Positions 6,024 to 29,271 of a stretch of DNA of 64,000 nt are shown piece by piece; position 1 is the stretch's first letter; every line of letters starts with the position of its first letter. Made by a program: the position numbers and the translations under genes. The stretch lies in the NCBI GenBank assembly GCA_015232575.1, contig JADFZL010000003.1, positions 192,001 through 256,000 on the forward strand. The letters run 5' to 3'. Source of the stretch: Candidatus Rifleibacteriota bacterium (GTDB taxonomy: Bacteria > Muiribacteriota > Ozemobacteria > Ozemobacterales > Ozemobacteraceae). Under the pieces are notes generated by a model. The model was not told the DNA's origin. It did no database searches and saw only the letters and a program-made list of their open reading frames with translations.

Positions 6024-6044
6024 TCCGCTAGAATGGCGTTAATT

Positions 6045-7359: not shown

Positions 7360-7362
7360 CTT

Positions 7363-10724: not shown

Positions 10725-10786
10725 ATTTTCCTGAAAATAATTAAATGCAGTCAATTATTGAATGATTGCATTTCAATAAAAATCAT

Positions 10787-10878: not shown

Positions 10879-10972
10879 ATGCTTGTCTGTTAAGCGGACA
10901 AAATACTAAATGAAAAGAAACAAAAAGTCAACGAGTATTTTAATAATGAATTGAAAGCTGAATCATGGATTA

Positions 10973-12103
10973 TTATTCTGCGTGAATAAATGTTATCAAT
11001 TCATCGGCGTGATGAAGTTCTTTTCCCGAAGCATCATAGACTCTGAATCCATCGGTATAAATGGGTGCACCCGATTTGTCAAGGTCAAACCATAGCACAT
11101 GGTTTCCAACAGTTTCCTCTGTACCATCTGGCAATAATTTCTTCAGTTTCCACTCACGACTCACAGCCACTTGTCTACCTTCTTTTTTTGCGACTTCGAG
11201 AGTGTTTACGAGTTGTCCATGAATGATTTTATTTGAAATATCAATTTCCTGAGATTCCGCACCACCGGCGGTCATAAGTGGTTTTTTGCCAAAAATCAAG
11301 GAGAAAAGATTCAAAAAACCGAAGATTGCGACAACAATTCGATACGGGAACATAATAAGATCTTTCAGTATCTCAATGAAATTAGCTGGTTCCCCGGGTT
11401 TTTTATGCGGACGTTCAATATAGTACAAATTGTTGAGGTGGTCTCCTTTAGGAAGCAGATAATCAATGTCAGGATGCTCTTTGATCGGCTTTATATCACC
11501 ATTTGCAGTATTCAACATATAAATGGCGCAGGACGAACTACTTACAACATGTCCTTCGGGAGAGCGGGCAAGTCCGGATGTCTGATAATAGATGTAAGAG
11601 CCTTGAACCCAAGGATTCTCATCAATACAGTCCCCGGAAGTAATCACCCTGACATCTTTTCCTTCTTCGTTCATTTTAATCAGATGAATTGAAGCGTCAC
11701 GATTTACTTGCGTCGTGATTATCTTATTGTCTTCCTGAAGAAAAAATCCGTGAGGATCAAACTCTTCGCGATGAAACAGCCGAATCTCCTTATTTTCCCT
11801 GGTATCAAAGTAAAAAAGGCCCCGTGCTTTGCTCATTGCTAAAATGTAATACAGGCGTTCTCCAGATTTCCAACAGGCTCTGAATTGAGGGCGACTGGAA
11901 GAAAATTGTTGCTGTCTGGCTCCCCACAAAAGGGACCTTGATACCAAAGCTTCCCCTTCTGAAGCTTCACCAGAAGCCTTCCATGACTGTTTCTCCCATT
12001 GCTTTTTCTCAATTTCTGCTTTTTCAATTGCGAAAGAGCTCAGAATCTCAGTATCGCTAGAATTCAGAATTTGAAAAAGGGAATTGTTTTTGATTACATA
12101 CAT
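10973..12103 (-). CDS. Hypothetical protein (376 aa)
   Basis: Long ORF with no recognisable motifs; possibly a beta-propeller-like fold. Confidence 0.4.
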   Translation of the reverse strand: MYVIKNNSLFQILNSSDTEILSSFAIEKAEIEKKQWEKQSWKASGEASEGEALVSRSLLWGARQQQFSSSRPQFRACWKSGERLYYILAMSKARGLFYFDTRENKEIRLFHREEFDPHGFFLQEDNKIITTQVNRDASIHLIKMNEEGKDVRVITSGDCIDENPWVQGSYIYYQTSGLARSPEGHVVSSSSCAIYMLNTANGDIKPIKEHPDIDYLLPKGDHLNNLYYIERPHKKPGEPANFIEILKDLIMFPYRIVVAIFGFLNLFSLIFGKKPLMTAGGAESQEIDISNKIIHGQLVNTLEVAKKEGRQVAVSREWKLKKLLPDGTEETVGNHVLWFDLDKSGAPIYTDGFRVYDASGKELHHADELITFIHAE

Positions 12104-12271
12104 GATTTACAACCTGACATTGAAATTGTTTTTTTCGAACCATCCAATTTGTGGTTTTCCCTCCCAAAAAAAAGACAACATGGGTCTTTAAAGAAAAAAC
12201 TGTGATTGTAAATAAATTTTCAAAAAAGACAATTGCTGTTGCGCTCATCAGCTAACGGTTGACATCTATTT

Positions 12272-12550
12272 TCATACCTTCCTTGCTTTACTTCGAAATT
12301 TGGGTGTTAGAAGCGGGATTAAGCATCGTAAAGCCCTATTCACAGATTCTGAATCCGGAAAATAGGTTAGAATATCTGGTTCAATAATTACTGCTCCTTC
12401 CTTTGGAAGCACCTCTTTTAAAACAGTAATACCGTCAGCCTCATGAACAGTTATAGTATAACCAGCTTGCATGGCTCTATGATGCTTGCCACGCACTCCA
12501 CCTGTAAAATCATATTCATCGCGGATTTTTGTATCCTCTATTTCCGTCAT
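12272..12550 (-). CDS. Putative BrnA-like antitoxin (partner of BrnT)
   Basis: 92-aa ORF starting at an ATG immediately after the BrnT TAA stop (TAAATG). This is the classic brnT-brnA order. Confidence 0.5.
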   Translation of the reverse strand: MTEIEDTKIRDEYDFTGGVRGKHHRAMQAGYTITVHEADGITVLKEVLPKEGAVIIEPDILTYFPDSESVNRALRCLIPLLTPKFRSKARKV

Positions 12551-12835
12551 TTAAATACTCCTTTCTTCATAAAATCTTCGCTCTGATGGGGTTGCCTTAC
12601 GGCAACTGATGATGCGTATTTGCGACTTGCGTTCAGTATAAACTACGACCAGCACGCGATTTTTGTCAGAGTCACCGATGTCAATAAGTCGCTGCTCAAC
12701 TTCCGAGTGATCAGGATCGGTCATCGTTATTGAAAAAGGATCAAGAAAGACCGTGGTCGCTTCATCAAAACCAACCCCGTGCTTTTTGAGATTCTTTTTG
12801 GCCTTTTCTCCATCCCATTCAAAGTTAATTTTCAT
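12551..12835 (-). CDS. brnT: BrnT-family toxin (DUF497, RelE/ParE-fold ribonuclease)
   Basis: 94 aa. The WDxxKxxxNxxKHGV N-terminus is characteristic of BrnT. Confidence 0.7.
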   Translation of the reverse strand: MKINFEWDGEKAKKNLKKHGVGFDEATTVFLDPFSITMTDPDHSEVEQRLIDIGDSDKNRVLVVVYTERKSQIRIISCRKATPSERRFYEERSI

Positions 12836-13265
12836 ATCAATACCTTAAAATTTTTCGGCTTTATTTCTTAATTGGAGCATCTGACAAAGCGGTCTATCCT
12901 TTTTACCAATGGGCCATAATCCTAAATTCTGATTCAAGATTTATTTTAATATTATAATCCTGGTGGAAAAAAGAATCAAGCAACTTGTTGTGAGACGCGA
13001 GCAAACGGAGCGACCTGTTGTATGAATACGGCTCTTTGGTCTCCAACCCTGGAACAATTGAAAGATGCTTATCATTGAAGGTGTATATTTAAACTCCGAG
13101 TCCAAAAACTGAGATTGAAATTTTCTGGACAAGAAGTTATACTATCGACGATCTGACCAACCTAAAGGTATTTTCCTGCCACTGAAATCAGCTTCGTTCA
13201 ACAAAAGCTAATAGTTAGCCTATCCGATGAAGTTTACGAATGTAGTTTAATAAAAGGAGGTTAGT

Positions 13266-13517
13266 ATGCCAAATGAAGCTAAAGTCTATCAACAGGATTT
13301 GATCAAGGAGATCAAATCTATTCCTCCAGAATATTTTCCCAATCTGTTACAAATGATTCGGATTTTTCGAGAAACTGCATTTTTCAACTCATTATCTCAA
13401 AAAAAAACAAGCATTAAACAAAATCGGTATCCATTGAGAGGTCTCCCATTTAAATATTTTGAACCAATGGAAGCCGTTGCCATTGATGATTGGGAGACAC
13501 TTTTAGATCGTACTTGA
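13266..13517 (+). CDS. Small hypothetical protein, possibly an orphan antitoxin-like protein
   Basis: 83 aa; RBS AAGGAGG upstream. No partner gene is evident. Confidence 0.3.
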   Translation: MPNEAKVYQQDLIKEIKSIPPEYFPNLLQMIRIFRETAFFNSLSQKKTSIKQNRYPLRGLPFKYFEPMEAVAIDDWETLLDRT

Positions 13518-13602
13518 CGTGATACCAGGTGAAAAAAAACATATGTAAAACGTAAAGTAACTGGACTAGCGTTTCTGTGAATGAACAAGCGCCTGTGATG
13601 AA

Positions 13603-13938
13603 ATGATCATTCACAATGGTCGGAAAGTTTTGAAAATGAAAATTATTTTGGCTCTTTCTGGTACAATTCATGGGTATTTTGCTGGTCTTCTTTCAACAGT
13701 GCTTTTTTTTGTATATCTTAAGAAGAAGGTTGAGCCGGTTGCGTTTATTATGGGACTTATGACAATAGCGCTCGTATACGGTTTTTGCTTTGTAATTTCC
13801 TTCGCTCTTGTTAAAGGCGGAAGCAGTCTATTTGGTTTTCAAAGCATGAATAATCAGGAGATTTTAAAATATACGGGTTGTTTTTTTCTTCCGGTGTGTT
13901 GCATTTTCAGCATCTACATTCATTTTTTTGGTAAGTAA
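13603..13938 (+). CDS. Small membrane protein, hypothetical
   Basis: Three predicted hydrophobic helices. Confidence 0.35.
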   Translation: MIIHNGRKVLKMKIILALSGTIHGYFAGLLSTVLFFVYLKKKVEPVAFIMGLMTIALVYGFCFVISFALVKGGSSLFGFQSMNNQEILKYTGCFFLPVCCIFSIYIHFFGK

Positions 13939-13945
13939 TCATCAG

Positions 13946-15133
13946 TTAGTTCCAGAGCCAACCTTTTTTTTCCCAAAGCTCGTGCATGAAATCCTGCCAG
14001 GGATAGATGCGAATGTTTTCTTCTTCTAAATGTCGGCAATGTGGTTCACAGGAAACTACAATCAGCTTCTTGACGACTTGTTCGGAACCCAGCTTTTTGA
14101 GACCATCTAAGTGGCGATTTGTAATTCGTTCGCTCGCTTTTACTTCGATACCCCAGCGTTTGCCTACGATGAAGTCCACTTCAACTTCACCTTTTTCAGT
14201 GCGCCAGAGACCGATTTCTGTCTGAGGTTCGAAATAGTCTAAAAAAGCACGTAATTCTAAAAAAATGAAGTGTTCAAAAAAAGATCCGAAATCAGAACTT
14301 GCTGGAACAATTTTTTCCAATCTGCGCAGGAATCTTACGACTCCCATGTCAGAAAGATAAAACTTCGAAGAACCAGCAGATTTCCGTTTGACTGAGGCAC
14401 GAAATGGTTGCAATTCAAAGCCCAGCATAGTGTCTTTGAGAATCTGAAAATAGTTACTCACGGTTTGTCGGTTTATGCCAGTATCGCTTGCAATTGATGA
14501 ATAATTCAATATTTGCCCATTGCAGGAAGCTGCAACCTCCAAAAATCGTGCAAATGATGGTAGATTTCTTACAAGTCCTTCTGCAGCAATTTCCTCGGTA
14601 AGATATTGTCCGACGTATGATGCAAGATCTTCATCCGGTAAGCGTGAAAGATAGTGTGGCGGAAGAGTGCCATTGTGAATTGCGTGTTTCAGATCAAAAT
14701 TGGGTAGTTCAGAACACGAGAATCCATGTAAATGACGCATTCTCGCACGTCCACCCAACAGATTAGAACCCGCTCGCTTTAGTTTGCGAGCGCTGGAACC
14801 AGACATTATAAATCTTGTATTCTTATTCTCAATCAGCCAGTGAATTTCATCCAGAAGTTCCGGAATTTTCTGTATTTCGTCAATAATTACCAGGCCGCTT
14901 TCGTTATTCGATGCCGCGAGACGCTCTCTAAGAAGAGTTGGGTTCCGCTGGAATTCAAGAAATTCTGCCCGATCAAGTAAATCAACGAATAAAACAGGCT
15001 TTTCGCTCAGTTGATGTTTAAGAAAAGATGATTTACCTGCTTGTCGCGGTGCAAAAAGAAAACAAGACCTGTCAAAAATAAGATCATCAATATTCAAGGA
15101 TCTTTTATAATAGGTTTTATTATTATTTCCCAT
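13946..15133 (-). CDS. AAA+ ATPase of the DUF4143 (COG1373) family
   Basis: Walker A (APRQAGKS), Walker B (LVIIDEIQ) and the C-terminal DUF4143-like region. Confidence 0.7.
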   Translation of the reverse strand: MGNNNKTYYKRSLNIDDLIFDRSCFLFAPRQAGKSSFLKHQLSEKPVLFVDLLDRAEFLEFQRNPTLLRERLAASNNESGLVIIDEIQKIPELLDEIHWLIENKNTRFIMSGSSARKLKRAGSNLLGGRARMRHLHGFSCSELPNFDLKHAIHNGTLPPHYLSRLPDEDLASYVGQYLTEEIAAEGLVRNLPSFARFLEVAASCNGQILNYSSIASDTGINRQTVSNYFQILKDTMLGFELQPFRASVKRKSAGSSKFYLSDMGVVRFLRRLEKIVPASSDFGSFFEHFIFLELRAFLDYFEPQTEIGLWRTEKGEVEVDFIVGKRWGIEVKASERITNRHLDGLKKLGSEQVVKKLIVVSCEPHCRHLEEENIRIYPWQDFMHELWEKKGWLWN

Positions 15134-15421
15134 TCTTTCTCCGTAAATATTAACATCATTTATGCAATCTATGTTAGCGCTTTTTCCGAAAAAATGCTAA
15201 CATAAATGTTAAAATAGTTAAAAAAAATAACAATTTATGTTAATCTTTTGATTGCAAGTGTTTGTTAAATTTGGATTATCAATGTAAGTTTGCATTTTTA
15301 CAGAGTTCCATGAGGGACTTTTGACTTTCCTGAAAAAGGATGATAAATTTTTTAGAAGAGCGTTAGGCTTTTCTGTATAATAATTTATTGTAAAAGAAAT
15401 CATCAGAAAAAGGACATTATT

Positions 15422-15631
15422 ATGAAATACGGTGCTAGAAACAAAATTGAGGCTAAAGTAAAGACGATTCAAAAAGGAGATATTATGTCTCTGGTCAAGT
15501 TTGACAATATTTCGGCGGCTGAAATGGCTTCTGTTCTCACAACCGAATCTGTTGAATACATGAATTTAAAGCCAGGCGACAAGATTGAGCTGGTAATAAA
15601 AGCAATTCATGTATTGCCAGTAAAAGAATAG
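15422..15631 (+). CDS. mop: TOBE-domain molybdopterin-binding (Mop-like) protein
   Basis: 69 aa. SARNxxxxxV-type TOBE fold start (GARNKIEAKV). Confidence 0.7.
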   Translation: MKYGARNKIEAKVKTIQKGDIMSLVKFDNISAAEMASVLTTESVEYMNLKPGDKIELVIKAIHVLPVKE

Positions 15632-15632
15632 C

Positions 15633-16247
15633 ATGGCAAAAACCGTTGATGCACGCGGATTAGCTTGTCCTCAGCCCGTTCTTCTGGCGAAAAAAGCCAT
15701 TGAGGAAAATGAGGAAGTCAAAATTCTTGTTGACAACGAGACAGCGGTTGAAAACATCCTCAGAATTGCTGCCAAAATGAACTGCAAGGTTCAAGTGAGT
15801 GAATCGCAGGGAAACACTCGGGAAGTAATGATAAAACGATCAACTGAAACATCTGTTTCAGTTATTGCTGAATCTGAAAAAGCGTGTATTGCAGATTCTG
15901 TGAAAAACAAGCGTAAGGTAGTGATTGTTTTGTCAGATAATTGTATGGGTAGGGGCGACGATCAATTAGGGGATATTCTGATTCGAAGTTTTCTGCATAC
16001 GATTTCAGAAATGTCTGTTAAACCAGCAAAGATAATATGCTACAATGCAGGTGTAAAGCTCGCAGCAAAGGGTTCGTCCGTAATTGATGACCTTCGCCGA
16101 CTGTCGGAAGTTGGGGTAGAAATTCTTGTTTGCGGAACCTGCGTTAAATTTTATGATATTGCCGATCAGATTGGTGTGGGGATTATTTCAAATATGTATG
16201 ATATTGCTGATTCTCTAACAAATGCAGATCATGTCCTCAAACCTTGA
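15633..16247 (+). CDS. yedF: Selenium metabolism protein YedF (long form: TusA-like N-domain + DsrE-like C-domain)
   Basis: N-terminal GLACPQP TusA motif and a C-terminal DsrE/DsrF-like domain. ~200 aa, matching the selenium-associated YedF architecture. Confidence 0.7.
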   Translation: MAKTVDARGLACPQPVLLAKKAIEENEEVKILVDNETAVENILRIAAKMNCKVQVSESQGNTREVMIKRSTETSVSVIAESEKACIADSVKNKRKVVIVLSDNCMGRGDDQLGDILIRSFLHTISEMSVKPAKIICYNAGVKLAAKGSSVIDDLRRLSEVGVEILVCGTCVKFYDIADQIGVGIISNMYDIADSLTNADHVLKP

Positions 16248-16473
16248 CTTGCACGATGATGCTTTTGTCGTGTTTCTATTTCAGTCTATTACCAGCACTT
16301 TAAAAGCAGAAAAGATTCTCAAAAATACAAATATACCACATAAGCTGATTCCAGTTCCGCGCCATTTAAGTTCTGATTGCGGTGTATGTCTCCGAATAGA
16401 CAAGAATCAAAGAGAAAATGTAATCCTAGTCTTAAAAGGTTTTGTTGAGTGGGAAAAAGAAGAAGTTCTCTAA
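16222..16473 (+). CDS. DUF3343-family small protein (second copy)
   Basis: SSDCGV motif. Paralogue of 4402..4638. Confidence 0.6.
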   Translation: MQIMSSNLDLHDDAFVVFLFQSITSTLKAEKILKNTNIPHKLIPVPRHLSSDCGVCLRIDKNQRENVILVLKGFVEWEKEEVL

Positions 16474-16553: not shown

Positions 16554-19235
16554 CTACGCTTTTTCCAGTTTACATGCGCAGACTTTGAATTCCGGGATCT
16601 TTGCTTCCGGGTCGAGTGCATTTATGGTCAGTTTATTGGCAGGGGCCTCTGAAAAATGGAAAGGCACAAAAGCCGTACCCTTGGGAATTCGATCTGTTAC
16701 GAAAGCTTTTGTTGTTATGTTTCCTCTGCGTGTTGTGACTTTTATGTTATCACTGTTAGATATTCCCAGACCTTTGGCATCTTCGACTGAAATCATTACG
16801 TGTGGACCTGCGAGATTATTCAGTCCCTCGGATTTTCTTGTCATGGTTCCGGTGTGGAAGTGCTGTAGAACTCTTCCTGTTGTAAGATAAACCGGATAAT
16901 CATTGTCAGGTATTTCTGCGGGGTTTTTGAATGGAATCGGAAACATTGCACCTTTGCCCCTGGTAAATTTTCCAATATGCAAAACAGGGGTTCCCGGATG
17001 CTCTTTTGTTGGACATGGCCAATGCAGGCCATTTCCAGCAAGCCGTCTGTAATCCATTCCTGCGTAGCTTGGAGTGCACTTTGCTAATTCATTAAAAATA
17101 TCTTCTGCTGAGTTATATTTCCAATTGTGACCCATTTTATTGGCCAGAAGTTGATGAATCTGCCAGTCATCCTTTGCTTCTCCGGGTGGCTCAACAGCCT
17201 TATATAATACTTGTACCCTTCTTTCTGTGTTGGTAAATGTACCAAGCTTTTCCGGCCACGTGGTAGCAGGAAGTACAACATGTGCAAGTTTTGCTGTTTC
17301 TGTAAGGAAAATATCTTGTACAACAAGAAAATCAAGTTTATTAAGACCAGCTTCGACATGATGAAGATCAGGGTCACTAAGCATTGGATTTTCACCCATG
17401 ATGTAGAAAGCCTTCATTTCACCGTTGTAAGCTTTGTCGATTGCTGTTGTAAGGGTCAATCCGTTTTCGGCACTAAGTTGACAACCCCAGAATTTTTCAA
17501 ATTTTTCTTTAATTTCGGGAAGGATAACTTTTTGATACCCTGTGTAAACAACAGGCAAAGCTCCAACATCGCAGGCGCCCTGGACATTTGATTGTCCTCG
17601 GAGAGGGTTAACTCCTCCGCCAATTTTTCCCATATTACCACAAAGCATTTGGAGGTTTGCACACGATTTTACATTATCCACACCTGTGGTATGTTGCGTA
17701 ATACCCATAGAATAGTATATTGCAGCTGTACCTGCTTTTCCAAACATCTGAGCAATTGCCTCAAGAGTTTTTGCAGGAATGCCAGAAATCTGTTCGACAT
17801 ACTCTGGAGAATATTTTTCAACCTCTGCTTTCAGTGCTTCATATCCTTCACATCTTTCGGCAATAAATTCTTTGTCTTCCCAACCGTTCTTTATGATGAC
17901 ATTCATAATTCCGTTAAGAACCGCAACATCTGTCCCAGGTCTTTGTGAAGCGTATATTTTTGCATAATTTGCCATTTTTATTCGTTTGGGATCAATAACA
18001 ATTATCTTCATTCCATCTTTTGCTGCTTTTTTGAGACGCGCACCAATAACCGGGTGTGTTTCGGAGGTATCTGAGCCGATAATAAGTGCAACATCACTTC
18101 TACCTATTCCAGCATAATCATTTGTCATTGCACCCGAACCAAAAGATAATGCCAGACCGGCAACTGTTGATGCATGGCACAATCGGGCACAATGATCAAC
18201 ATTGTTTGTACCGATTACGGTTCTGATGAATTTTTGAAAAGTATAGTTTTCTTCATTCGTTACTTTAGCGGATGAAAAGCCCATTATTGAGTTTGCACCA
18301 TTCTTTTGCTTAATATCAGTTAGCCTCGTTGCAATTATATCAAGAGCTTCATCCCAGGAGGCTTTTCTGAATGATCCGTCGTCAGTTTTGATCAGTGGAG
18401 TTGTCAATCTATCCTTATGATCAACAAAATCGTAGCCAAAACGTCCCTTTACACACAGCATACCGTTGTTAGACGGTGAGCCTTCCAAACCATTTACACG
18501 AACGATTTTGTTCTGTTTTGCATCAACATGAATTTCCATCTGACATCCAACACCGCAATAAGGGCAGACGCTGACGACTTTTTTTGTGTCCCAGTAACGC
18601 GCCATTCCTTTGGCTTTATTTTCTGTTATTGCACCCACGGGACAAATTTGAGAACATTCACCACACTGAACACAACTAGAATCACCCATTTTCTTGTCGT
18701 CATCAAAAATGACTTCTGTTCTGTGTCCCCTGTATCCAAAATTCAAAACATCGTTTGTAACAGTATTTTGACAGGCAGAAACACATCTTCCACAAGCGAT
18801 GCATTTGTTGCGATTAACCTGAAGAAATTCGGAACTATCATCAATATTCGGTTCAAAATCTGCATAATTCAGTGATGGCTTTTCAATGCCGAGATAATAA
18901 GCCGCATCCTGAAGTTCGCACTTTCCATTTTGCTGGCAGGCGATACAATCATGCGTTCCATTCGAAAGTAGAAGATCAATAACAAGTTTCTGCCCTTCCA
19001 AAGCTTTTTGTGATTTTGTCTGAATATTCATTCCTTCTTTAACAATCACAGAGCAGGATGTCTGAAGTCCTTTCATTCCTTCAACTTCCACGACACATGC
19101 ACGACATTTCCCTGCAACGCCCACCTTTTCGTGATAGCATAGAGAGGGAATATAAACTCCGTTTTTTCTTGCTGCCAGAAGAATGGTTTGTCCATCTTCA
19201 ACATTCAGTTTTTTTCCATTAATGAAAATTTGCAT
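16554..19235 (-). CDS. fdhA: Formate dehydrogenase catalytic subunit, Cys-containing paralogue (N-terminal 2Fe-2S/4Fe-4S NuoG-like module + Mo/W-bisPGD domain)
   Basis: 893 aa. N-terminal ferredoxin-like Cys clusters and the molybdopterin oxidoreductase core. The active-site segment reads VDHCARLCHASTVAGL, with Cys where the paralogue has UGA. RBS GGAGGAA. Confidence 0.85.
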   Translation of the reverse strand: MQIFINGKKLNVEDGQTILLAARKNGVYIPSLCYHEKVGVAGKCRACVVEVEGMKGLQTSCSVIVKEGMNIQTKSQKALEGQKLVIDLLLSNGTHDCIACQQNGKCELQDAAYYLGIEKPSLNYADFEPNIDDSSEFLQVNRNKCIACGRCVSACQNTVTNDVLNFGYRGHRTEVIFDDDKKMGDSSCVQCGECSQICPVGAITENKAKGMARYWDTKKVVSVCPYCGVGCQMEIHVDAKQNKIVRVNGLEGSPSNNGMLCVKGRFGYDFVDHKDRLTTPLIKTDDGSFRKASWDEALDIIATRLTDIKQKNGANSIMGFSSAKVTNEENYTFQKFIRTVIGTNNVDHCARLCHASTVAGLALSFGSGAMTNDYAGIGRSDVALIIGSDTSETHPVIGARLKKAAKDGMKIIVIDPKRIKMANYAKIYASQRPGTDVAVLNGIMNVIIKNGWEDKEFIAERCEGYEALKAEVEKYSPEYVEQISGIPAKTLEAIAQMFGKAGTAAIYYSMGITQHTTGVDNVKSCANLQMLCGNMGKIGGGVNPLRGQSNVQGACDVGALPVVYTGYQKVILPEIKEKFEKFWGCQLSAENGLTLTTAIDKAYNGEMKAFYIMGENPMLSDPDLHHVEAGLNKLDFLVVQDIFLTETAKLAHVVLPATTWPEKLGTFTNTERRVQVLYKAVEPPGEAKDDWQIHQLLANKMGHNWKYNSAEDIFNELAKCTPSYAGMDYRRLAGNGLHWPCPTKEHPGTPVLHIGKFTRGKGAMFPIPFKNPAEIPDNDYPVYLTTGRVLQHFHTGTMTRKSEGLNNLAGPHVMISVEDAKGLGISNSDNIKVTTRRGNITTKAFVTDRIPKGTAFVPFHFSEAPANKLTINALDPEAKIPEFKVCACKLEKA

Positions 19236-19262
19236 AAATTCCTCCAGTATTGTTATTTAATA

Positions 19263-19305
19263 ATGAAAAAAGACAAAACGGCATTAAGCATGCAGTTTTG
19301 TCTTT
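19263..19305 (-). promoter_or_regulatory. Terminator-like hairpin in the 5' leader of fdhA(Cys), ~30 nt upstream of its RBS (possible attenuator)
   Basis: The minus-strand RNA reads AAAGACAAAAC-ugcaugcuuaaugcc-GUUUUGUCUUUUUUCAUUAUU, an 11-bp stem plus U-run. The upstream ~600 nt is non-coding. Confidence 0.45.
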
Positions 19306-19912
19306 AAATTTTTTTGACAAAAAAGAACTACAAATACGAAAAAGTATTACTTTTTGTTTATTGGCGAGACCCGCCGTTTCGATAAGGTGATTCATAGCTT
19401 ACACCTTATAAAAACAGCATTTTTCAAGAACAACCTTACATTATTATTATGAAACATTTATATTGTACACAGAACAAAAGATTGAAGACATTAAAGTTAC
19501 CAGCGCAGAGGAGAGGTAACCGGTAATGATCTTTCCAATTTATTGTTGTCGCCTGCTTTACTAAGTTAAAACCTCTTATTAACTGAAATCTCTTTAATAG
19601 AATCGCAATTTTCATATTGTATAAACAGATTCAAAAGTGTATGTACGAATTTTATAACCCGAATTTACGGAAAAGTCAAATTATCTGATCATCTTTTCAT
19701 GCAATTCGTATTACCACATTCCCTGTTACAGGTATCATTGATTCATCAAATAATTCAATCTGGAAAAAACTTTTTATAAACCTATCATGTAGTTCGTCAG
19801 ATTGTGCCTGAGACCGCGTTAGAAGAAGATTGTTGTACTCTACGGCTGAAAAGGTATTCTAAATAACCCATGATGATAGAAACTCTGAATAAAAAATTAA
19901 GCATTTAATTGA

Positions 19913-19950
19913 AAAAAACACAGGAAGTGCTTTCCTTCCTGTGTTTTTTA
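19913..19950. terminator. Bidirectional intrinsic terminator downstream of fdhA(Sec)
   Basis: AAAAAACACAGGAAG-tgcttt-CTTCCTGTGTTTTTT. Confidence 0.65.
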
Positions 19951-19971
19951 AACTAATGGCTAATGAAAATA

Positions 19972-22656
19972 CTATGCTTTTTCCAGTTTACATGCGCAGA
20001 CCTTGTATTCCGGTATTTTTGCTTCCGGATCAAGTGCGTTAATGGTTAGTTTGTTGGCAGGAGCTTCGATGAAGTGGAAAGGCATAAAAGCAGTTCCTTT
20101 AGGAATTCGCTTTGTAACGAAAGCCTTAGTGGTAACGCTGCCGCGGCGGGTTGTTACTTTAACGGTTCCACTGTTTGAAACGCCTAGTTCAACGGCATCT
20201 TCTACTGAAATCATTACATGAGGTCCGGCAAGATTATTCAATCCTTCGGATTTTCTTGTCATGGTTCCGGTGTGGAAGTGCTGTAGAATTCTTCCGGTTG
20301 TCAGATAAACCGGATAGTCTTTGTCGGGTAATTCAGCGGGATCTTTGAATGGAATTGGGAATAATGTCCCTTTTCCCTTGGTGAATTTACCAATATGAAG
20401 AACAGGAGTACCAGGGTGTTCTTTTGTTGGACATGGCCAATGCAGACCTTTTCCTTCAAGTCTTTTGTAATCTAATCCGGCATAGCTCGGAGTGCATTTG
20501 GTCAATTCATCAAAGATATCTTCTGCGGTATTATATTTCCAGTTGTGACCCATTTTATTGGCCAGAAGTTGATGAATCTGCCAGTCATCTTTTGCTTCCC
20601 CGGGTGGTTCAACGGCTTTGTGCAACAATTGTACACGGCGTTCAGTATTAGTGAAGGTACCAAGTTTTTCGGGCCATGTACTGGCAGGAAGTACAACATG
20701 TGCCATTTTAGCTGTTTCCGTAAGGAAAATGTCTTCGACAACCAGGAAATCAAGCTTTTTGAGGGCTTCTTCAACATGGTGAAGATCTGGATCACTCAGC
20801 ATCGGATTTTCACCCATAATGTAGAATGACTTTACTTCTCCCTTGCCAGCTTTGTCTATGGCAACTGTAAGCGTTAATCCATTTTCAGCACTGAGCTGAC
20901 AACCCCAGAACTTTTCGAACTTTTCCTTGATTTCAGGAAGTGTAACTTTCTGATAAGCAGTGTAAACGACTGGAAGTCCGCCAACGTCACATGCGCCCTG
21001 GACGTTTGACTGTCCACGCAGCGGATTAACACCACCACCAACTTTACCCATATTGCCACAAATCATTTGCAGATTTGCACAAGATTTAACATTGTCAACA
21101 CCAGTGGTGTGCTGGGTAATGCCCATTGCGTAATAAATCGCTGCTGACTTTGCTTTTCCAAACATTTCTGCAATTGCTTCGAGGGTTTTTGCCGGGATAC
21201 CAGAAATCTTCTCAACGTGCTCAGGAGTGTATTTTTCTACTTCTGCTTTCAACGCTTCAAAACCTTCACATCTTTCAGCGATGAATTCTTTGTCTTCCCA
21301 GCCATTCTTGATGATTACATGCATAATTCCGTTAAGAACAGCAACATCTGTACCTGGTCTCTGAGCGGCATAGATTTTGGCGTAATCTGCCATTTTAATT
21401 TGTTTGGGATCAATAACAATTATTTTCAACCCATGTTTTGATGCCTTTTTCAAGCGGGCAGCAATTACCGGATGGGCTTCAGATGTATCGGAACCAATTA
21501 TTAGAGCAACTTCACTTTTACCAACTCCTGCGATATCATTTGTCATAGCTCCAGAACCAAAAGATGCGGCCAGACCGGCCACAGTGGAGCTGTGTCATAA
21601 TCGCGCACAGTGATCGACGTTATTCGTCCCTATCACTGTGCGAAAGAACTTTTGAAAAGTGTAGTTTTCTTCGTTTGTAACTTTTGCTGAAGAAAAACCC
21701 ATTAAAGAATTTGGACCATGTTTTTGTTTAATTTCAGAAAACTTTGTCGCTACTAATTCAATTGCTTCATCCCATGAAGCTTTTCTGAAAGAGCCATCAT
21801 TGTTTCTGATTAAAGGTGTAGTAAGTCTTTCCTTGTGATCTACAAAGTCATATCCAAAGCGGCCTTTTACACAAAGCATACCGTAATTGGATGGGGCGCT
21901 TTCAACGCCGTTGACCCGGACAATCTTGTTGATTTTCCGGTCGACATGAATTTCCATCTGGCAACCTACACCACAATAAGGACAAACTGAAGTCACTTTG
22001 TCAGTTTCCCAGTAACGCGCCATTCCTTTTGCTTTTTTCTCAGTTATTGCGCCAACTGGACAAATCTGAGAACATTCACCACACTGGACACAGGTGGAAT
22101 CACCCATCTTCTTGTCATCATCAAAAATGACTTCAGTGTTGTGTCCTCTGTAACCAAAATTCAAAACATCGTTTGTAACAGTATTCTGACATGCAGAAAC
22201 GCATCTTCCACAAGCGATGCACTTGTTTCGATCGACCTGAATAAATTCTGAGCTGTCATCAAGATTCGGTTCAAAATCAGCATAGTTCAATGAAGGTTTT
22301 TCAATGCCAAGATAATATGCGGCATCCTGAAGTTCGCACTTGCCGTTTTGCTGACAGGCAATACAATCGTGCGTTCCATTAGAAAGCAGAAGATCAATAA
22401 CAAGTTTCTGACCATCCACAGCTTTCTGGGATCTCGTCTGAATCTTCATTCCCTCTTTCACAATTACTGAACAGGATGTCTGAAGACCTTTCATCCCTTC
22501 AACCTCTACTACGCAGGCTCGGCATTTCCCTGCCACGCCAACCTTCTCATGGTAACAAAGAGAAGGAATATAAATTCCATTTTTCCTTGCGGCCTGAAGA
22601 ATGGTTTGCCCTTCTTCAGCCTGCAATTGCTTGTCATTGATGGTAATTAGCATCAA
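19972..22656 (-). CDS. fdhA: Formate dehydrogenase catalytic subunit, selenocysteine-containing (UGA-Sec at 21597..21595); the track shows it as two ORFs
   Basis: ORFs 21595..22656 and 19972..21582 are in the same frame, separated only by TGA. The joined translation VDHCARL-U-HSSTVAGLAAS aligns with the Cys paralogue's VDHCARL-C-HASTVAGL. A SECIS-like structure follows the UGA. Confidence 0.85.
21541..21594 (-). ncRNA. SECIS-like stem-loop immediately 3' of the fdhA UGA
   Basis: The RNA reads CACAG-CUCCA-CUGUG, then a 7-bp stem AGCUCCA...UGGAGCU enclosing GGCC-GGUCU-GGCC. The equivalent region of the Cys paralogue lacks this complementarity. Confidence 0.5.
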
Positions 22657-22763: not shown

Positions 22764-23450
22764 TTAGGATATACAGCCTGTCAGATCAGATTTCGAAAGA
22801 GCATATTTAAAAAATACTGACCTTGTGTTAAAAGAACCGCTATCTGAATTATCGACTGCAAAATTATAATCTTGTGGTACATTTATATTGAAAAGTATTT
22901 TTTCCCAGTCCATGTCAGAATTGCGAGCATCATATTCTTTGACTGAAACTTCAGAAAAAATAGACCTGATTGAAAACAATCCTGCACTTATAGCTTTATG
23001 CGTTGCAGGGAGACAATTCGTTGAATAAAGCGAAAACAATGGATTCAAACCACCGATAGTTCTTGGAATCACAACATCCATTTTTTCAGAAATACTCAGA
23101 AGAAAGGACGCAGCAGATTCTGAAATAAATGGCATGTCACAACCTGCAAGAAGAGCATAATCAGTATTTACATGATCAAGCCCGGTCATAAGCCCTCCCA
23201 GAGGTCCAGTGCAGAGGCGATCTTCAATGAAGTTAAAACCATCATTTTCTGGAAACTTTTCTCCTTCTGGAAAGCCAACAATATGAACTCTCTGGGTAAA
23301 ACAGGCAAGTTTCTTTGCGACATATAACCACATAGGAAAGCCTTGCCAGGACAGGAACTGTTTTTTTCTCCCCATTCTGATACTTTGTCCACCGACAAGC
23401 AAAAGTGCTTCAATTGGCAATCGGCAGTTTTTTTCATTTGTATCAGTCAC
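22764..23450 (-). CDS. mobA: Molybdenum cofactor guanylyltransferase MobA-like
   Basis: LLVGGQSIRMG motif typical of MobA. 228 aa. Confidence 0.7.
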   Translation of the reverse strand: MTDTNEKNCRLPIEALLLVGGQSIRMGRKKQFLSWQGFPMWLYVAKKLACFTQRVHIVGFPEGEKFPENDGFNFIEDRLCTGPLGGLMTGLDHVNTDYALLAGCDMPFISESAASFLLSISEKMDVVIPRTIGGLNPLFSLYSTNCLPATHKAISAGLFSIRSIFSEVSVKEYDARNSDMDWEKILFNINVPQDYNFAVDNSDSGSFNTRSVFFKYALSKSDLTGCIS

Positions 23451-23533
23451 TTGTTTTGTCCATCACTTTAATATTTCGAGTTACAGAAAATTCTAACATA
23501 ATCAATAATTAGTGTCAAAAAAGAACCCGGAGC

Positions 23534-24331
23534 TCATGAAACGCGCCATGAATGTGTATAAACGTTGAACCGTTCTCCTCTTGTAAAACCAATGGTAGTA
23601 AGATTAAGTGAATCAGCAAGCTGCAATGCTCCGGAAGTTGGTGCTGAAGGAGAAATTAGTATGGGAAATTTACCTCTGACCGCTTTTGTAACAATTTCTG
23701 TGCTGATTCTTCCTGTTTCCAGCATTATCGCTTTTGAATCTGATGGCCATCTGTTTTGCAGTTGCCACCCCAGAACCTTATCAACAGCATTGTGTCTGCC
23801 TATATCATCACAGACGAAAAGAATGTTATCGTTTTCAGCAATGGCAGCTGAGTGAACTCCGCCCGTTTTCCTGAAAGTAGATGATGCATTCTGAAGTTTT
23901 TTAACCAGTGAAAGAACTACATCTGAAGATATTCTTACATCAGATTCTATTTTCTGAAAAAATTTTGAATATATCGGAGAAACGGTAGTTAAACATCTAC
24001 CACAGCCTGTTGCGACAGATCGTACTGAATTAAAAAGATTTCCCTGTAAGCCTTCTTTCAGTATAATCTCAATCGAATTTGTCCGTTCGGAATAATTAAC
24101 ACTGTTAACGTCGCTCAAATTTTCTATTATACATTCACTGAAAAGAAATCCCAGTGCAAGCTGTTCTATGTAAGTCGGATTATATATAAGACGTGCAATT
24201 TCATTTCCGTTTACAAAAACAGCTAAAATACTTTCTTTTATTATCAGATCATCAATTTGAGAAAATTTTCCATTTTCAAATTTTTTTGCCTGATAATTCT
24301 CTATTGCAAATTCACTGCATTTTTCAACCAT
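23534..24331 (-). CDS. fdhD: Formate dehydrogenase accessory sulfurtransferase FdhD
   Basis: FdhD family signature (GGVHSAA...DIGRHNAVDK). Confidence 0.8.
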   Translation of the reverse strand: MVEKCSEFAIENYQAKKFENGKFSQIDDLIIKESILAVFVNGNEIARLIYNPTYIEQLALGFLFSECIIENLSDVNSVNYSERTNSIEIILKEGLQGNLFNSVRSVATGCGRCLTTVSPIYSKFFQKIESDVRISSDVVLSLVKKLQNASSTFRKTGGVHSAAIAENDNILFVCDDIGRHNAVDKVLGWQLQNRWPSDSKAIMLETGRISTEIVTKAVRGKFPILISPSAPTSGALQLADSLNLTTIGFTRGERFNVYTHSWRVS

Positions 24332-24413: not shown

Positions 24414-26132
24414 TTATTTAATCAATGCTTCAAATTCATGTCTGAACTTTTGGACCATCGCTTCGATTGGCATTGCAAAAGCATCACCAAGCGGACATAG
24501 AGTAAGCCCTTTTATTTTTCCGCACATTTTTAGAATTGTGTCAATATCAGACTTTGAGCCGTTACCATGAAGAATTCTCTTGATAAGAGCTTTTACTGTG
24601 CTGGAACCTTCGCGACATGGTGTGCATTGACCGCAGGATTCGTGTGCATAGAATTCAATAGTGCGATATGCAACTTCGGGAATCGAAACAGTATCATTAA
24701 TAACCATGATTCCGCCAGAACCAAGCATTGTTCCTGCCTTCTGGCAACTGTCATAATCCATCTTCAATTCGTTAATTTCGGAAGCAGTCAAGATCGGTAC
24801 AGAAAGACCACCAACGATTACACCTTTAATTTTGCCTTTTACTCCGCCTGCTGCATCAAGAATTTTCTTAAGCGGTGTTCCAAGTGGGAATTCAAATGCT
24901 CCCGGTTTATTTACATGGCCACTTACACCATAAATTTTGGGGCCGTAATTACCGACAGTTCCGATCTTTTTGAATTCATCTGCGCCTTTTTCAATGATAA
25001 CCGGTACCAGAGCCAAAGATTCGACATTGTTGATAATGGTTGGACATCCATATAGGCCCTGAATTGCAGGGAAAGGTGGCTTGAGTCTTGGATTTCCACG
25101 ATTTCCTTCAAGGGATTCCATAAGCGCGGTTTCATCACCACAAACATAAGATCCTGCGCCTTTGTGAACTATAATTTCAACGTGCTTCAATAATCCGGCA
25201 TCTTTTGCCTGTTTAACTGCTTTTTCAAGAATATCGGCTATCCACCTGAATTCGCCACGTATGTATATGAAAGATTTTTTTGAACCTATAGCGTATGCTG
25301 ATATAGCGATGCCTTCAATAAGAAGATGCGGATCATATTCCATTATCTGTCGATCTTTGAATGTGCCCGGCTCTCCTTCATCTGCGTTGCAAATCAAATA
25401 AACTGGTTTTGTGTTATTCTTTGGAAGAAAGCTCCATTTCAAGCCTGTCGGAAAACCTGCTCCACCTCGACCTCTAAGCTGTGCATCTTTTACCATGGAA
25501 ACAATTTCAGCGGGTTCAATCGTCAGGGCTTTTTTCAAAGCCTCATATCCGCCATTTTTTTGATATACAGCCAAGTCAGTTGCTTTCTTATTTCCGCGAT
25601 TTTTAAGAAGGACATTACATTCAGATGCAAAAACCGATTCATCAACCTTTTCAGGGACTTTTCCCTTCCTGAGTTCTGCGATGATTTTATCAATTTTTTC
25701 GGTTGTCATGTTTTCATAGTAGATATCATTGATTTGTACAACCGGGCATGTCCCGCATGAGCCCAAATCCTGAACTTCTGTCAAAGTAAAAAGTCCGTCA
25801 GAAGTTGTTTCTCCGGGTTTTATTCCAAGTGAAGTCTTGAGGTGATTTAAGATTTTGTCGGAACCAGCCAGAAATGCAGGAATGTTGACATCAACCTGAA
25901 TATGAAATTTTCCGATTGGTTTGGTATTAAACATTGTGTAAAAAGTGGCAACCCCAAACGCTTTTCCTTCTGTAACGCCAATCTGGGTTGCAACTTCCTG
26001 TATCATTTCAGCTGACAGATGATTTCCGTTATCTCTCTGTGCAAGATCTAAAGCCGGTATCAATGCAGAAATACGGCTTGGGTAGCTATTTGCAATTGAA
26101 TCTATCTTTTCTCTAACGCTTGTATTCATCAA
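24414..26132 (-). CDS. fdhB: Formate dehydrogenase NAD(P)H-binding subunit (fused NuoE-like thioredoxin-like 2Fe-2S + NuoF-like FMN/NAD/4Fe-4S)
   Basis: 572 aa with NuoE-like N-terminal and NuoF-like core motifs (GRGGAGFPTG, CGQCTPCREG). Confidence 0.8.
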   Translation of the reverse strand: MMNTSVREKIDSIANSYPSRISALIPALDLAQRDNGNHLSAEMIQEVATQIGVTEGKAFGVATFYTMFNTKPIGKFHIQVDVNIPAFLAGSDKILNHLKTSLGIKPGETTSDGLFTLTEVQDLGSCGTCPVVQINDIYYENMTTEKIDKIIAELRKGKVPEKVDESVFASECNVLLKNRGNKKATDLAVYQKNGGYEALKKALTIEPAEIVSMVKDAQLRGRGGAGFPTGLKWSFLPKNNTKPVYLICNADEGEPGTFKDRQIMEYDPHLLIEGIAISAYAIGSKKSFIYIRGEFRWIADILEKAVKQAKDAGLLKHVEIIVHKGAGSYVCGDETALMESLEGNRGNPRLKPPFPAIQGLYGCPTIINNVESLALVPVIIEKGADEFKKIGTVGNYGPKIYGVSGHVNKPGAFEFPLGTPLKKILDAAGGVKGKIKGVIVGGLSVPILTASEINELKMDYDSCQKAGTMLGSGGIMVINDTVSIPEVAYRTIEFYAHESCGQCTPCREGSSTVKALIKRILHGNGSKSDIDTILKMCGKIKGLTLCPLGDAFAMPIEAMVQKFRHEFEALIK

Positions 26133-27315: not shown

Positions 27316-27915
27316 ATGCATAAAAAAGTCATTTTTCAGGTTTTATGTCTTTCTTTGTTAAATAATCGTTTTAATTCTTACTACAAACCCCCAAAACAAA
27401 ATATTGCAGCCCTTTCATTGACGTTTTTCATTAATTTCTGTTTTTTTATGTTGTCACCGTCTTTTGCTGATCAACCCGATGAGAGAAATCTAAACACACG
27501 ACGACATCACTCTGCAAGCGCATCTGCTTCAGAAATATCAAATTTTGGAAAATCTGAAAAAAGCGATTATTGTGTTGTACTTGAATTTAATAGCAGCGAA
27601 ATTGCATCCTTTTCAGCAGACGATCTTGATAAATTTCCCAGGAAAACTTTTGAATGCCCAGAGGCTGGTAAATCTCTGTGTGGATCATCATTAAAGGGAA
27701 TTCTATCTTCAGCCGGAATCAAAGAATTTAAAGAAGTTACAATAAGCGGTTTTTCAAAAGGCAGAATGTTCACTGCTGAAATCACTCTTAAATCTGAAGA
27801 GATCGATGAAAATGTAATTCTTGCATTAAGTAACAGAAGAACGGCAAAACTTGCAAGTCCTAAAATTCCATTCAAGAACTGGATAATTGACGTGGAGAGG
27901 ATTTCGGTCAAATGA
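27316..27915 (+). CDS. Hypothetical secreted protein
   Basis: Hydrophobic N-terminus. Its stop overlaps the next start (ATGA). Confidence 0.4.
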   Translation: MHKKVIFQVLCLSLLNNRFNSYYKPPKQNIAALSLTFFINFCFFMLSPSFADQPDERNLNTRRHHSASASASEISNFGKSEKSDYCVVLEFNSSEIASFSADDLDKFPRKTFECPEAGKSLCGSSLKGILSSAGIKEFKEVTISGFSKGRMFTAEITLKSEEIDENVILALSNRRTAKLASPKIPFKNWIIDVERISVK

Positions 27916-28676
27916 GCGAAATAGTCTATATTGGGGTTGATGATACCGATGTTCTGGGAAGCCCTGGAACTGGAAAGATCGCCAGGGGAATTGCGGAAAT
28001 GCTTTTTGAGAAAGGTTTGGCGAAATCGCTTGGCGTAAGTCGTCATCAGCTTCTCGTCGATCCGAGGGTTAAATACACTTCGCATAACAGTTGCAAAGGA
28101 ATTGCAGTAATTACAGATAACTTTCCCGTTGTGCTGGTAAAACCATGTTCTGATTATATTAAAGACCATTTTCAGCCGGGTTCAGATCCGGGTCTGTGTA
28201 TATGCTCTGAAAAAAATATTACACCAGAGATACTTGCATACTCAGTAAAAGCCGAGACTGAATTCATTCAGAAAGACGAGGCTTACACATTAGTTTCCGG
28301 AAAGGATATTTTCCTCACAGAGCTTGGCGGTGACGGTGGTGGAGTGATCGGAGCTCTTGCCGCTGTTGGTTTGCGGGCTGGCGGAAACAATGGCAGACTT
28401 GTTGACATCAGAGGAGTGCGGGACATTTCTGGAAAAATTTCTGTGATGGAAATAAAATTCAGAACTGATATTGTCGCTGTCTCTGATATTGATGGAAACG
28501 AACTTTCTAACTTAGAAATAGTTGAAAGCCTTTCTTGGATACGCCCAAATCTTGTTAATGGAAAGCCAGTGCTGAAGGTAATACTTTCAGAAGAGTTGAC
28601 AAACGTAGAAGGCAAAAGAATCTGGATTCCGGCTGAAAGAGAAATGAAAATGACAAAAGGAGATAAAAATGAGTAA
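27912..28676 (+). CDS. Hypothetical protein with a TiaS-kinase-like (IGxDDTD...) N-terminal domain
   Basis: N-terminal YIGVDDTDVLGSPGTG...LLVDPRVKYTSHN resembles the IGIDDTDS...NPNVPFKTRGN signature of the TiaS kinase-type domain, as I recall it. Gly-rich LGGDGGGVIGALAAVG segment. Confidence 0.3.
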   Translation: MSEIVYIGVDDTDVLGSPGTGKIARGIAEMLFEKGLAKSLGVSRHQLLVDPRVKYTSHNSCKGIAVITDNFPVVLVKPCSDYIKDHFQPGSDPGLCICSEKNITPEILAYSVKAETEFIQKDEAYTLVSGKDIFLTELGGDGGGVIGALAAVGLRAGGNNGRLVDIRGVRDISGKISVMEIKFRTDIVAVSDIDGNELSNLEIVESLSWIRPNLVNGKPVLKVILSEELTNVEGKRIWIPAEREMKMTKGDKNE

Positions 28677-29271
28677 AAAAACCAGAGCTATTTCTATTTC
28701 GGAAGTAATTTTCGAAGAAGCAAAAGATTTCAATACCAAAACATATCACTTATTTGTGATTGTTGCTGGTCTTATTGTATCAGGGTTGGTTACTGCTTTT
28801 GCAAAAAAATTGACGTTCCATCTTGGCATACCTGGCCACAGCGCTATTTTATGGCTTGGTTCAATGATTGCTTGCCGGAACATAATCGGAAATAAAGGTG
28901 CTGGGACGCTTATCGGAATCAGCACAGCACTATGGGGTGTTCCGATGGGACTGAACAATGCAGTAATATATAACATTGGTTTGTACGGCGCTGCTGGTAT
29001 TGTTCTGGACCTCATTGCAATGGTTCCGCAGATTAATACTTCTAAGGTCACCAGTGCAGTACTTTCTGGAATAGCTGCACACGCAATGAAATTCTGCTTT
29101 TTAGTTTGCAGCACTCTCAGCAGCACAGTGATAAAGAAATTTGTATTATTTGGATTCCTTCAGTCGGCTTTTCTGCATGTATTTTTTGGCGCTATCGCAG
29201 GCCTTACAGGAATATTAGGGTATTCAATTTTCCAACAACTTTTTCAAAAGAAAAGAACGTCTGATCAATAA
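28669..29271 (+). CDS. Hypothetical integral membrane protein
   Basis: About five hydrophobic helices. Start overlaps the previous gene. Confidence 0.4.
   Translation: MSKKTRAISISEVIFEEAKDFNTKTYHLFVIVAGLIVSGLVTAFAKKLTFHLGIPGHSAILWLGSMIACRNIIGNKGAGTLIGISTALWGVPMGLNNAVIYNIGLYGAAGIVLDLIAMVPQINTSKVTSAVLSGIAAHAMKFCFLVCSTLSSTVIKKFVLFGFLQSAFLHVFFGAIAGLTGILGYSIFQQLFQKKRTSDQ

Follow-up and report, generated by a model that had tools for sequence, protein, structure and literature searches.

FdhA is the most widespread family of bacterial selenoproteins (PMC9312934), and the bacterial selenocysteine insertion sequence (SECIS) has been generalized as a stem of 6-8 bp with a conserved loop G located about 20 nt after the UGA codon (PMC4605307). 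In Treponema primitia, which carries a pair of formate dehydrogenase (FDH) genes with selenocysteine (Sec) and cysteine, fdhF(Sec) and fdhF(Cys), low selenium induces the Cys copy and truncates the Sec transcript near the SECIS, a proposed barrier to transcription when selenium is limiting (PMC3892789). Here we describe an FDH locus in a stretch of 64,000 nucleotides from a Candidatus Rifleibacteriota bacterium (contig JADFZL010000003.1, positions 192,001 to 256,000), hereafter the window, to which all coordinates refer. The sequence comparisons indicate that 19972..22653 on the minus strand is, almost certainly, one gene for an FDH alpha subunit, fdhA(Sec), in which the UGA codon 353 is decoded as Sec with the help of a conserved hairpin. 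This gene is of the most common and best characterized type among bacterial selenoprotein genes, and the fdhA SECIS is a textbook example. The features that carry this assignment are the following.

19972..22653, minus strand: fdhA(Sec), a single FDH alpha-subunit gene of 893 codons, with the stop codon TAG at 19974..19972
21595..21597, minus strand: UGA codon 353, predicted to encode Sec, at the position of the molybdenum or tungsten (Mo/W) ligand
21565..21583, minus strand: apical SECIS hairpin UGUGGCC-GGUCU-GGCCGCA, with the loop GGUCU at 21576..21572 and a conserved 6-bp core at 21582..21566
21547..21591, minus strand: full SECIS region including an outer 7-bp stem, AGCUCCA (21591..21585) paired with UGGAGCU (21553..21547)

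The initial annotation of this region listed two open reading frames (ORFs), 21595..22656 and 19972..21582, and proposed that they share a frame, are separated only by a TGA and form one selenoprotein gene with a SECIS-like stem directly downstream of that codon. The shared frame is confirmed: 352 codons (21598..22653) precede the TGA at 21597..21595 and 540 open codons (19972..21594) follow it, this TGA is the only one within the joined translation, and there is no frameshift between the ORFs. The start of the second ORF at GTG 21582 merely reflects the need of the ORF tool for a start codon; the four codons between the TGA and this GTG (CAC AGC TCC ACT) are all open. The gene itself likely starts at ATG 22653 rather than at TTG 22656, the start given by the ORF tool, because GGAGG precedes this ATG and the paralog described below as well as the orthologs L001-L003 begin at the equivalent Met.

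The joined protein consists of N-terminal 2Fe-2S, NuoG-like and 4Fe-4S domains followed by the catalytic domain that binds the Mo/W-bis-pyranopterin guanine dinucleotide cofactor, as delineated with Pfam; the 4Fe-4S domain that opens the catalytic module (PF04879) is detected at residues 220-274 (E = 2.4e-18). With X in place of the TGA codon, the protein matches the NCBIfam model for the FDH alpha subunit, TIGR01591, in one stretch (residues 223-889, profile positions 2-671 of 672), with a score of 862.2 bits compared to the cutoff of 666.25. Alignments with solved structures likewise run in one stretch each, over residues 3-890 for 6tg9_A, 6-890 for 7vw6_A and 219-891 for 1aa6_A. The alpha subunits of the tungsten enzyme FDH1 of Methylobacterium extorquens (7vw6/7e5z) and of Rhodobacter capsulatus FdsABG (6tg9) align over the full length, NuoG-like N-terminus included (739 bits for 7vw6_A and 674 bits for 6tg9_A), and both enzymes also have a NuoF-like beta subunit; the putative partner encoded in the window, a 572-aa fusion protein, is of the same length as 7e5z_B. 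Judging from these similarities, the set of fdhA, fdhB, fdhD and a mobA-like gene resembles the alpha/beta NAD-dependent FDHs with solved structures, and the predicted function of FdhA is formate oxidation or CO2 reduction by a predicted Mo- or W-dependent cytoplasmic enzyme.

The in-frame UGA lies at the position of the Mo/W ligand, as had been proposed. In a focused PDB search, U353-H354 is opposite Cys386-His of R. capsulatus FdsA (6tg9_A), so that the window gene has Sec where FdsA has Cys; in M. extorquens FDH1, the ligand presumably is Cys as well. In the F420-dependent FDH 9t1s_L, the residue opposite U353 is an X followed by His, within the motif NNVDHCARLxHSATV. The joined peptide NNVDHCARL-U-HSSTVAGLAAS aligns without gaps with NNVDHCARL-C-HASTVAGLALS of the paralog, in agreement with the initial annotation. 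By offset in an equal-length match, U353 maps to residue 140 (Sec140) of E. coli FDH-H (1aa6_A), the product of fdhF. The gene sequence of E. coli K-12 fdhF has TGA as codon 140, followed by CAC, within CARV-U-HGPSVAGL; hence, the two genes share a UGA at the homologous codon with His after it. The catalytic domains of the two proteins are 40% identical over 546 residues, and the active-site Arg333 of FDH-H is conserved as residue 546 of FdhA (BLASTP, position 193 in both query and subject; motif GVNPLRGQSNVQG). Unlike FDH-H, FdhA has an extra N-terminal 2Fe-2S/NuoG-like domain of 220 residues and is paired with a NuoEF-type subunit, whereas the E. coli enzyme is paired with hydrogenase 3.

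The UGA codon is conserved among bacterial orthologs. The genome search yielded 80 loci, of which two were unusable and 78 were counted, with one genome per species. All 28 bacterial loci in this set, which come from Riflebacteria-like bacteria, Delongbacteria, Cloacimonadota and many Desulfobacterota, have TGA at this codon, and all 50 loci of Methanomicrobiales have TGC or TGT. Among the bacterial metagenome contigs, 27 of 30 have TGA and three have a Cys codon, which brings the totals to 55 other bacterial loci with TGA, and 50 archaeal and 3 bacterial loci with TGC or TGT. The best 120 homologs of the N-terminal fragment in the protein database are nearly all 349-370 aa long (the three exceptions are 380-565 aa), reflecting gene calls that end at this very codon. 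Neither a frameshift between the ORFs nor a lack of conservation of the ligand residue, the two findings that the initial annotation had named as contradicting it, was encountered.

The predicted hairpin is situated where a bacterial SECIS is expected. In the minimum-energy fold of 21535..21600, an outer 7-bp stem encloses the 7-bp apical hairpin; the spacing between the UGA and the stem is 11 nt for the 7-bp stem or 12 nt for the 6-bp core, and the two G of the GGUCU loop lie 19 and 20 nt past the UGA. With a stem of 6-7 bp and these loop G positions, the hairpin conforms to the published generalization (PMC4605307). When fdhA(Sec) and E. coli fdhF are aligned codon for codon, the loop GGUC(U) is found at an equal offset from the UGA, and the distance of 11 nt from the UGA to the upper stem is the same. 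The two hairpins differ in that the window stem is regular, G-C-rich and 6-7 bp long, has a U.G wobble in place of the bulged U and encloses a loop of 5 rather than 4 nt. The window element is probably closer to the SECIS of Moorella thermoacetica fdhA that was crystallized with SelB. The Rfam family SECIS_3 (RF01989) spans 21542..21600, that is, the whole 59-nt model (43.6 bits, local E-value 6.6e-9), and the window sequence shares with its consensus the UGAC start and an apical hairpin of the type GGCC-AGUCU-GGCC. The checks that the initial annotation had put forward, including alignment with Sec-type FDH and RNAfold of 21535..21600 on the minus strand, all came out in its favor.

The strongest evidence comes from the comparison of orthologs, for which we used 29 genome-derived Sec-type sequences and a set enlarged with metagenome loci to 51 distinct sequences. 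RNAalifold applied to the 29 sequences predicts exactly the 6-bp apical hairpin, with two pairs that show compensatory changes. The covariation score of this structure is 0.251, compared to 0.127 in shuffles (0 of 500 reach the observed value), and it is above that of every slid register. Each of the six apical pairs (22-38 to 27-33) is formed in all 51 distinct sequences, 50 of which have the loop GGUCU. Pair 27-33 is C-G in 37 sequences and A-U in 14, and pair 24-36 is G-C in 32, A-U in 12 and G-U in 7; paired cells counted in this manner across orthologs are non-independent events. The variable positions of the hairpin are the third codon positions of Val, Ala, Leu and Ala, where the changes are synonymous, so the protein does not dictate them. 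In Cys-type genes that encode the same V-A-G-L-A peptide, pairs 27-33 and 24-36 form in just 14 and 19 of 51 cases, respectively, and the Gly codon is GGU in 18 of 51, as opposed to 28 of 29 Sec-type genes (50 of 51 in the enlarged set). The apical hairpin is part of the minimum-energy fold in 42 of 51 Sec genes compared to 7 of 54 Cys genes, despite the higher G+C content of the latter. Taken together, these comparisons suggest that the hairpin is maintained by selection at synonymous sites in Sec-type genes and that this selection is relaxed in archaeal Cys-type genes. The exception is the three bacterial Cys-type metagenome loci (L095 2806, L096 6362 and L101 6057, with TGT or TGC), which keep a complete 7-bp GGUCU hairpin; presumably, Sec was recently converted to Cys in these loci, and the hairpins are SECIS fossils. 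The positional equivalence to the E. coli fdhF SECIS and the conservation in 51 orthologs thus support the proposal of a single selenoprotein gene with a SECIS-like stem just downstream of the UGA.

Several observations weigh against this assignment. The fold of the single sequence (-21.9 kcal/mol, z = -2.07; 5 of 200 shuffles fold as well) is by itself just modestly better than that of shuffles, so it is the comparative data that are decisive. SECIS_3 scores 43.6 bits, short of the gathering score of 63, and a large part of this stems from shared coding sequence; a scan of the whole window at the Rfam gathering thresholds did not report SECIS_3, and several lower-stem pairs of the consensus are not formed, so that the element is not a member of this family by the Rfam threshold. 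E. coli SelB needs a bulged U in the upper stem, and there is none here: the homologous U (column 23) is in a U.G wobble in 45 of 51 sequences and in a U-A pair in 6 of 51. The bulged U, however, characterizes the E. coli element and is not general among bacterial SECIS elements. The C-G/A-U switch at pair 27-33 largely tracks clades and may represent one or two events; the G-C/A-U change at pair 24-36 recurs in unrelated clades, namely Cloacimonadota, Desulfobacterales and several metagenome groups. The outer stem is not conserved outside the close clade, being kept mainly in 23 sequences with AGC for Ser355.

The initial annotation included two further helices around the apical one, which fared differently. 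The 7-bp stem AGCUCCA/UGGAGCU enclosing GGCC-GGUCU-GGCC is indeed present in the minimum-energy fold of the window sequence, but this outer stem is lineage-specific: as a general feature it was rejected, being paired in only 66.5% of cells across orthologs, and other clades enclose the apical hairpin by different pairings. The proposed CACAG/CUGUG helix did not hold up. It is absent from the minimum-energy fold and cannot coexist with the outer and apical helices because it shares bases with both, and in the 29-sequence alignment it shows no covariation (68.3% of cells paired compared to 68.0% in shuffles).

All the dedicated components of Sec incorporation are encoded in the same window, about 10 kb from fdhA:

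10786..10879, minus strand: selC, tRNA-Sec with anticodon UCA (Rfam RF01852, 58.6 bits, gathering score 47; also found by ARAGORN)
9309..10754, minus strand: selA, selenocysteine synthase (PF03841; TIGR00474, 533 bits, cutoff 268)
7363..9321, minus strand: selB, Sec-specific elongation factor with a C-terminal winged-helix SECIS-binding domain (PF00009, PF25461, PF09107; TIGR00475, 338 bits, cutoff 242)
3086..4132, minus strand: selD, selenophosphate synthetase with an in-frame TGA at 4081..4079 (TIGR00476, 360 bits for the part after the TGA)

SelA, SelB and SelD all score above the curated cutoffs. The selD gene starts at ATG 4132 and has TAAG-U-AAKLNP at the Cys17/Sec position of SelD, and a hairpin, AUCCAG-AGUUG-CUGGAU, begins 13 nt after the UGA; by these sequence features, selD is predicted to be a selenoprotein gene that is also split by an in-frame TGA.

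Starting from what the sequence shows, namely how the gene is built, where the UGA lies, how the hairpin is conserved and covaries, and that the Sec machinery is encoded in the window, a mechanism can be proposed from homology to the systems of E. coli and Moorella. With the UGA in the ribosomal A site, the mRNA just downstream would fold into the hairpin with its 6-bp core and GGUCU loop, the winged-helix C-terminal domains of SelB (7363..9321) would bind this hairpin, and Sec-tRNA(Sec), supplied by the activities of selC (10786..10879), SelA (9309..10754) and SelD (3086..4132), would be delivered. The selenol would then serve as the protein ligand of the Mo/W center, beside the conserved His354 and Arg546. 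Electrons from formate would pass through the Fe-S clusters of the NuoG-like N-terminal domain to FdhB (24414..26132) and on to NAD(P)+ or a comparable acceptor. The second copy in the tandem, at 16554..19235, is a duplicate in which TGA changed to TGC and the hairpin is decaying.

Given that a functional-looking Cys copy lies immediately downstream of fdhA(Sec) and that gene callers split such genes in two, one could propose that a nonsense mutation killed fdhA(Sec), with the neighboring paralog remaining as the working enzyme. This scenario is extremely unlikely: the TGA is common to 55 other bacterial loci, fdhA(Sec) is free of additional stops and frameshifts, the genes for the Sec machinery are adjacent, compensatory synonymous changes maintain the hairpin, and the 540 codons after the TGA are as constrained as the 352 codons before it. 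The ratio of nonsynonymous to synonymous substitution rates (dN/dS) between the Sec copy and the Cys paralog is about 0.05 throughout (0.044 upstream and 0.051 downstream of the TGA), and the downstream value relative to ortholog L002 is 0.064. Purifying selection is equally strong on both sides of the TGA, and the gene is not decaying.

The split seen by the ORF finder, which lists two ORFs, could also be taken at face value as two genes, one for an Fe-S subunit (21598..22653) and one for a catalytic subunit that starts at GTG 21582, considering that some FDH-like enzymes have separate Fe-S subunits. The probability of this arrangement is vanishingly small. The break falls inside the Pfam Molybdopterin domain, with profile positions 1-81 before the TGA and 97-352 past it, and also within TIGR01591, near profile position 130; the two halves score 173.9 and 660.0 bits against the latter model, both under the cutoff of 666.25. 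Initiation at GTG 21582 would leave out the metal ligand as well as the catalytic His; this codon lacks a preceding Shine-Dalgarno sequence and is itself located inside the hairpin stem; and the Cys paralog and all solved homologs are continuous across the break.

Some candidate phyla recode UGA, and the closest genomes belong to poorly known candidate phyla, so that a genome-wide reassignment of UGA to Trp or Gly (genetic codes 4 or 25), which requires no Sec mechanism, comes to mind. Its probability is close to nil because TGA is the stop of 18 of the 38 frames in the window that are open for at least 200 codons (the Sec codon of fdhA counted among the 18) and is the commonest ordinary stop, used by selA, fdhD and yedE among others. 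A scan for in-frame TGAs between long open stretches produced convincing cases only in fdhA and selD, the aligned residue in homologs is Cys or Sec, never Trp or Gly, and a dedicated tRNA-Sec, SelA and SelB are present. A sequencing or assembly error that turned TGC into TGA, one base apart, deserves practically no credence given the TGA at this codon in 55 independent assemblies and a hairpin that is complete as in TGA genes, whereas that of the Cys copy in the window itself is degraded. Decoding of UGA as Sec within a single fdhA gene is accordingly retained as the preferred interpretation.

The tandem paralog and the region that separates it from fdhA(Sec) comprise three features:

16554..19235, minus strand: fdhA(Cys), tandem paralog with TGC (18179..18177) at the homologous codon (TIGR01591, 878 bits)
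18150..18162, minus strand: SECIS remnant in fdhA(Cys), UGCC-GGUCU-GGCA, with 4 of 7 apical pairs and an identical loop
19913..19949, minus strand: hairpin resembling an intrinsic terminator, with a run of U, immediately past the stop of fdhA(Sec) (-25.9 kcal/mol, z = -5.75, 0 of 200 shuffles)

The two copies are 87.5% identical at the amino acid level and 80% at the nucleotide level, without gaps. The initial annotation held that the Cys gene lacks the complementarity seen downstream of the UGA; this applies to the outer stem, which is lost, partly via the replacement of Ser355 by Ala, and to the rest of the upper stem, but not to the four apical pairs and the loop, which are kept. Pairs 23-37 (U.U) and 21-39 (A.A) are broken in the remnant. 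The Sec and Cys copies are nearer to each other than either is to any ortholog found, the best of which (L001) is 79% and 85% identical on the two halves. Neither the tblastn scan of genomes nor the metagenome scan detected a tandem copy in other loci, which have single copies that are at most 85% identical, and no full-length close Cys-type ortholog was found in the protein database search; an exact-protein look-up likewise gave no match. Because the copies are mutually closest and there is no other tandem locus, the duplication and the change of TGA to TGC can be placed within this lineage.

As in T. primitia, Sec and Cys isoenzymes of FDH are encoded in one genome and, in the window, both are under purifying selection; by analogy, fdhA(Cys) most likely functions as a selenium-independent back-up enzyme. 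The two cases differ in that FdhA is fused to a NuoG-like domain and is not of the FDH-H type, the phyla are different, and the copies in the window form a tandem, with a terminator and a 736-nt leader between them.

A consensus scan for terminators calls both the SECIS hairpin (21565..21583) and the remnant (18150..18162) terminator-like because UCUUUUGG (Ser-Phe-Gly) comes after each of them. The U-rich tail after the SECIS hairpin is not conserved in orthologs. By analogy with T. primitia, the genuine SECIS together with UCUUUUGG may additionally serve as an attenuator upon ribosome stalling at the UGA.

The hairpin at 19913..19949, which the consensus scan did not list, divides fdhA(Sec) from the 736-nt leader of fdhA(Cys). 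Within this leader, a hairpin with the SECIS loop, GGCG-GGUCU-CGCC (19375..19363, minus strand), in which all pairs are G-C, is located 16 nt after a UGA. A short ORF (ATG 19457) shares its frame with this UGA, which also overlaps the AUG of another ORF, 58 codons long and preceded by the ribosome-binding site AAGGUG. Some 60 nt past this hairpin and about 25 nt before the ribosome-binding site of fdhA(Cys), there is a terminator-like hairpin followed by six U (approximately 19301..19262, minus strand). Repression by a SECIS-like element has a precedent in the 5' untranslated region of E. coli selAB, and the idea of a selenium sensor built from SECIS parts in the 736-nt leader would extend such a case. 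Abundant SelB loaded with Sec-tRNA(Sec) would bind the leader element, or Sec-dependent read-through would occur, and the resulting change in the folding or translation of the leader would shut off fdhA(Cys). We consider such a sensor very unlikely. The GGUCU hairpin loses out to a competing 16-bp hairpin in the minimum-energy fold of the leader, and it is not statistically exceptional because the whole window contains five hairpins with a GGUCU loop and at least 4 bp, two of them in the FDH genes and two, with G.U pairs, inside unrelated genes. The upstream regions of three bacterial Cys-type loci (L095, L096, L101) contain no such hairpin, a short-word BLAST search of the leader against the window revealed no motif shared with other intergenic regions, and an Rfam search of 19200..20000 at a permissive threshold gave chance-level matches only, with no molybdenum cofactor (Moco) or other riboswitch. 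No homologous leader was found for comparison in the genome, metagenome or protein searches. The combination of the SECIS-like hairpin and the terminator may be a chance occurrence.

Beyond the sel genes listed above, the selenium-related genes of the window include:

1164..2093: LysR regulator, weakly matching the LysR model of selenium metabolism (NF040786, score below its cutoff)
4700..5878: cysteine desulfurase of the TIGR01977 family
6256..7359: yedE, by family profile match
15422..15631: protein with a Mop molybdenum-pterin-binding domain (TIGR00638, below its cutoff)
15633..16247: yedF, by family profile match
16222..16473: 83-aa ORF that overlaps the end of yedF, with no family match

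Together with selABCD, these genes form a compact selenium island (1164..16473) that adjoins the FDH genes. Upstream of fdhA(Sec) are three further genes:

24414..26132, minus strand: fdhB, a NuoE-NuoF fusion (2Fe-2S, FMN/NAD(H) site, 4Fe-4S) of 572 aa, identified with Pfam and NCBIfam
23534..24331, minus strand: fdhD, sulfurtransferase that sulfurates the FDH cofactor (PF02634; TIGR00129, 193 bits, cutoff 141)
22764..23450, minus strand: mobA-like molybdenum cofactor guanylyltransferase (PF12804; NF011056, below its cutoff)

The PDB matches of FdhB are NuoF chains and the FDH beta subunits 7e5z_B and 6tg9_B, and this protein is likely the diaphorase partner of FdhA. Among the sigma-70-like promoter matches in this region, the top one (TTGACA-17-TAGAAT with TG, 11/12, a consensus match only) is at 23490..23518 on the minus strand, in the interval between fdhD and the mobA-like gene, so that the latter and fdhA(Sec) may be served by a promoter of their own. 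Two adjacent small ORFs (92 and 94 aa) at 12272..12835 on the minus strand, between the selenium genes and a gene for an AAA/DUF4143 ATPase, presumably represent a toxin-antitoxin pair of the BrnT/BrnA type. On the plus strand, three consecutive overlapping ORFs (27316..29271; 199, 254 and 200 aa) with no Pfam match lie upstream of a gene for a TonB-dependent receptor (29600..31876).

The fdhA(Sec) locus leaves the current understanding of Sec decoding unchanged, and the sole lead to anything new is the SECIS-like hairpin with its terminator in the leader of fdhA(Cys). In practical terms, the two ORFs of fdhA should be merged into one selenoprotein gene in the annotation, and likewise those of selD; otherwise, a broken FDH and a truncated SelD appear. 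More broadly, the window presents a selenium island beside a Sec/Cys pair of NAD-type FDHs in a lineage close to Riflebacteria-like metagenome-assembled genomes. The same peptide motif, encoded with the hairpin in Sec-type genes and without it in archaeal Cys-type genes, provides a natural control, and the half-decayed SECIS in fdhA(Cys) is a snapshot of Sec-to-Cys conversion after duplication.

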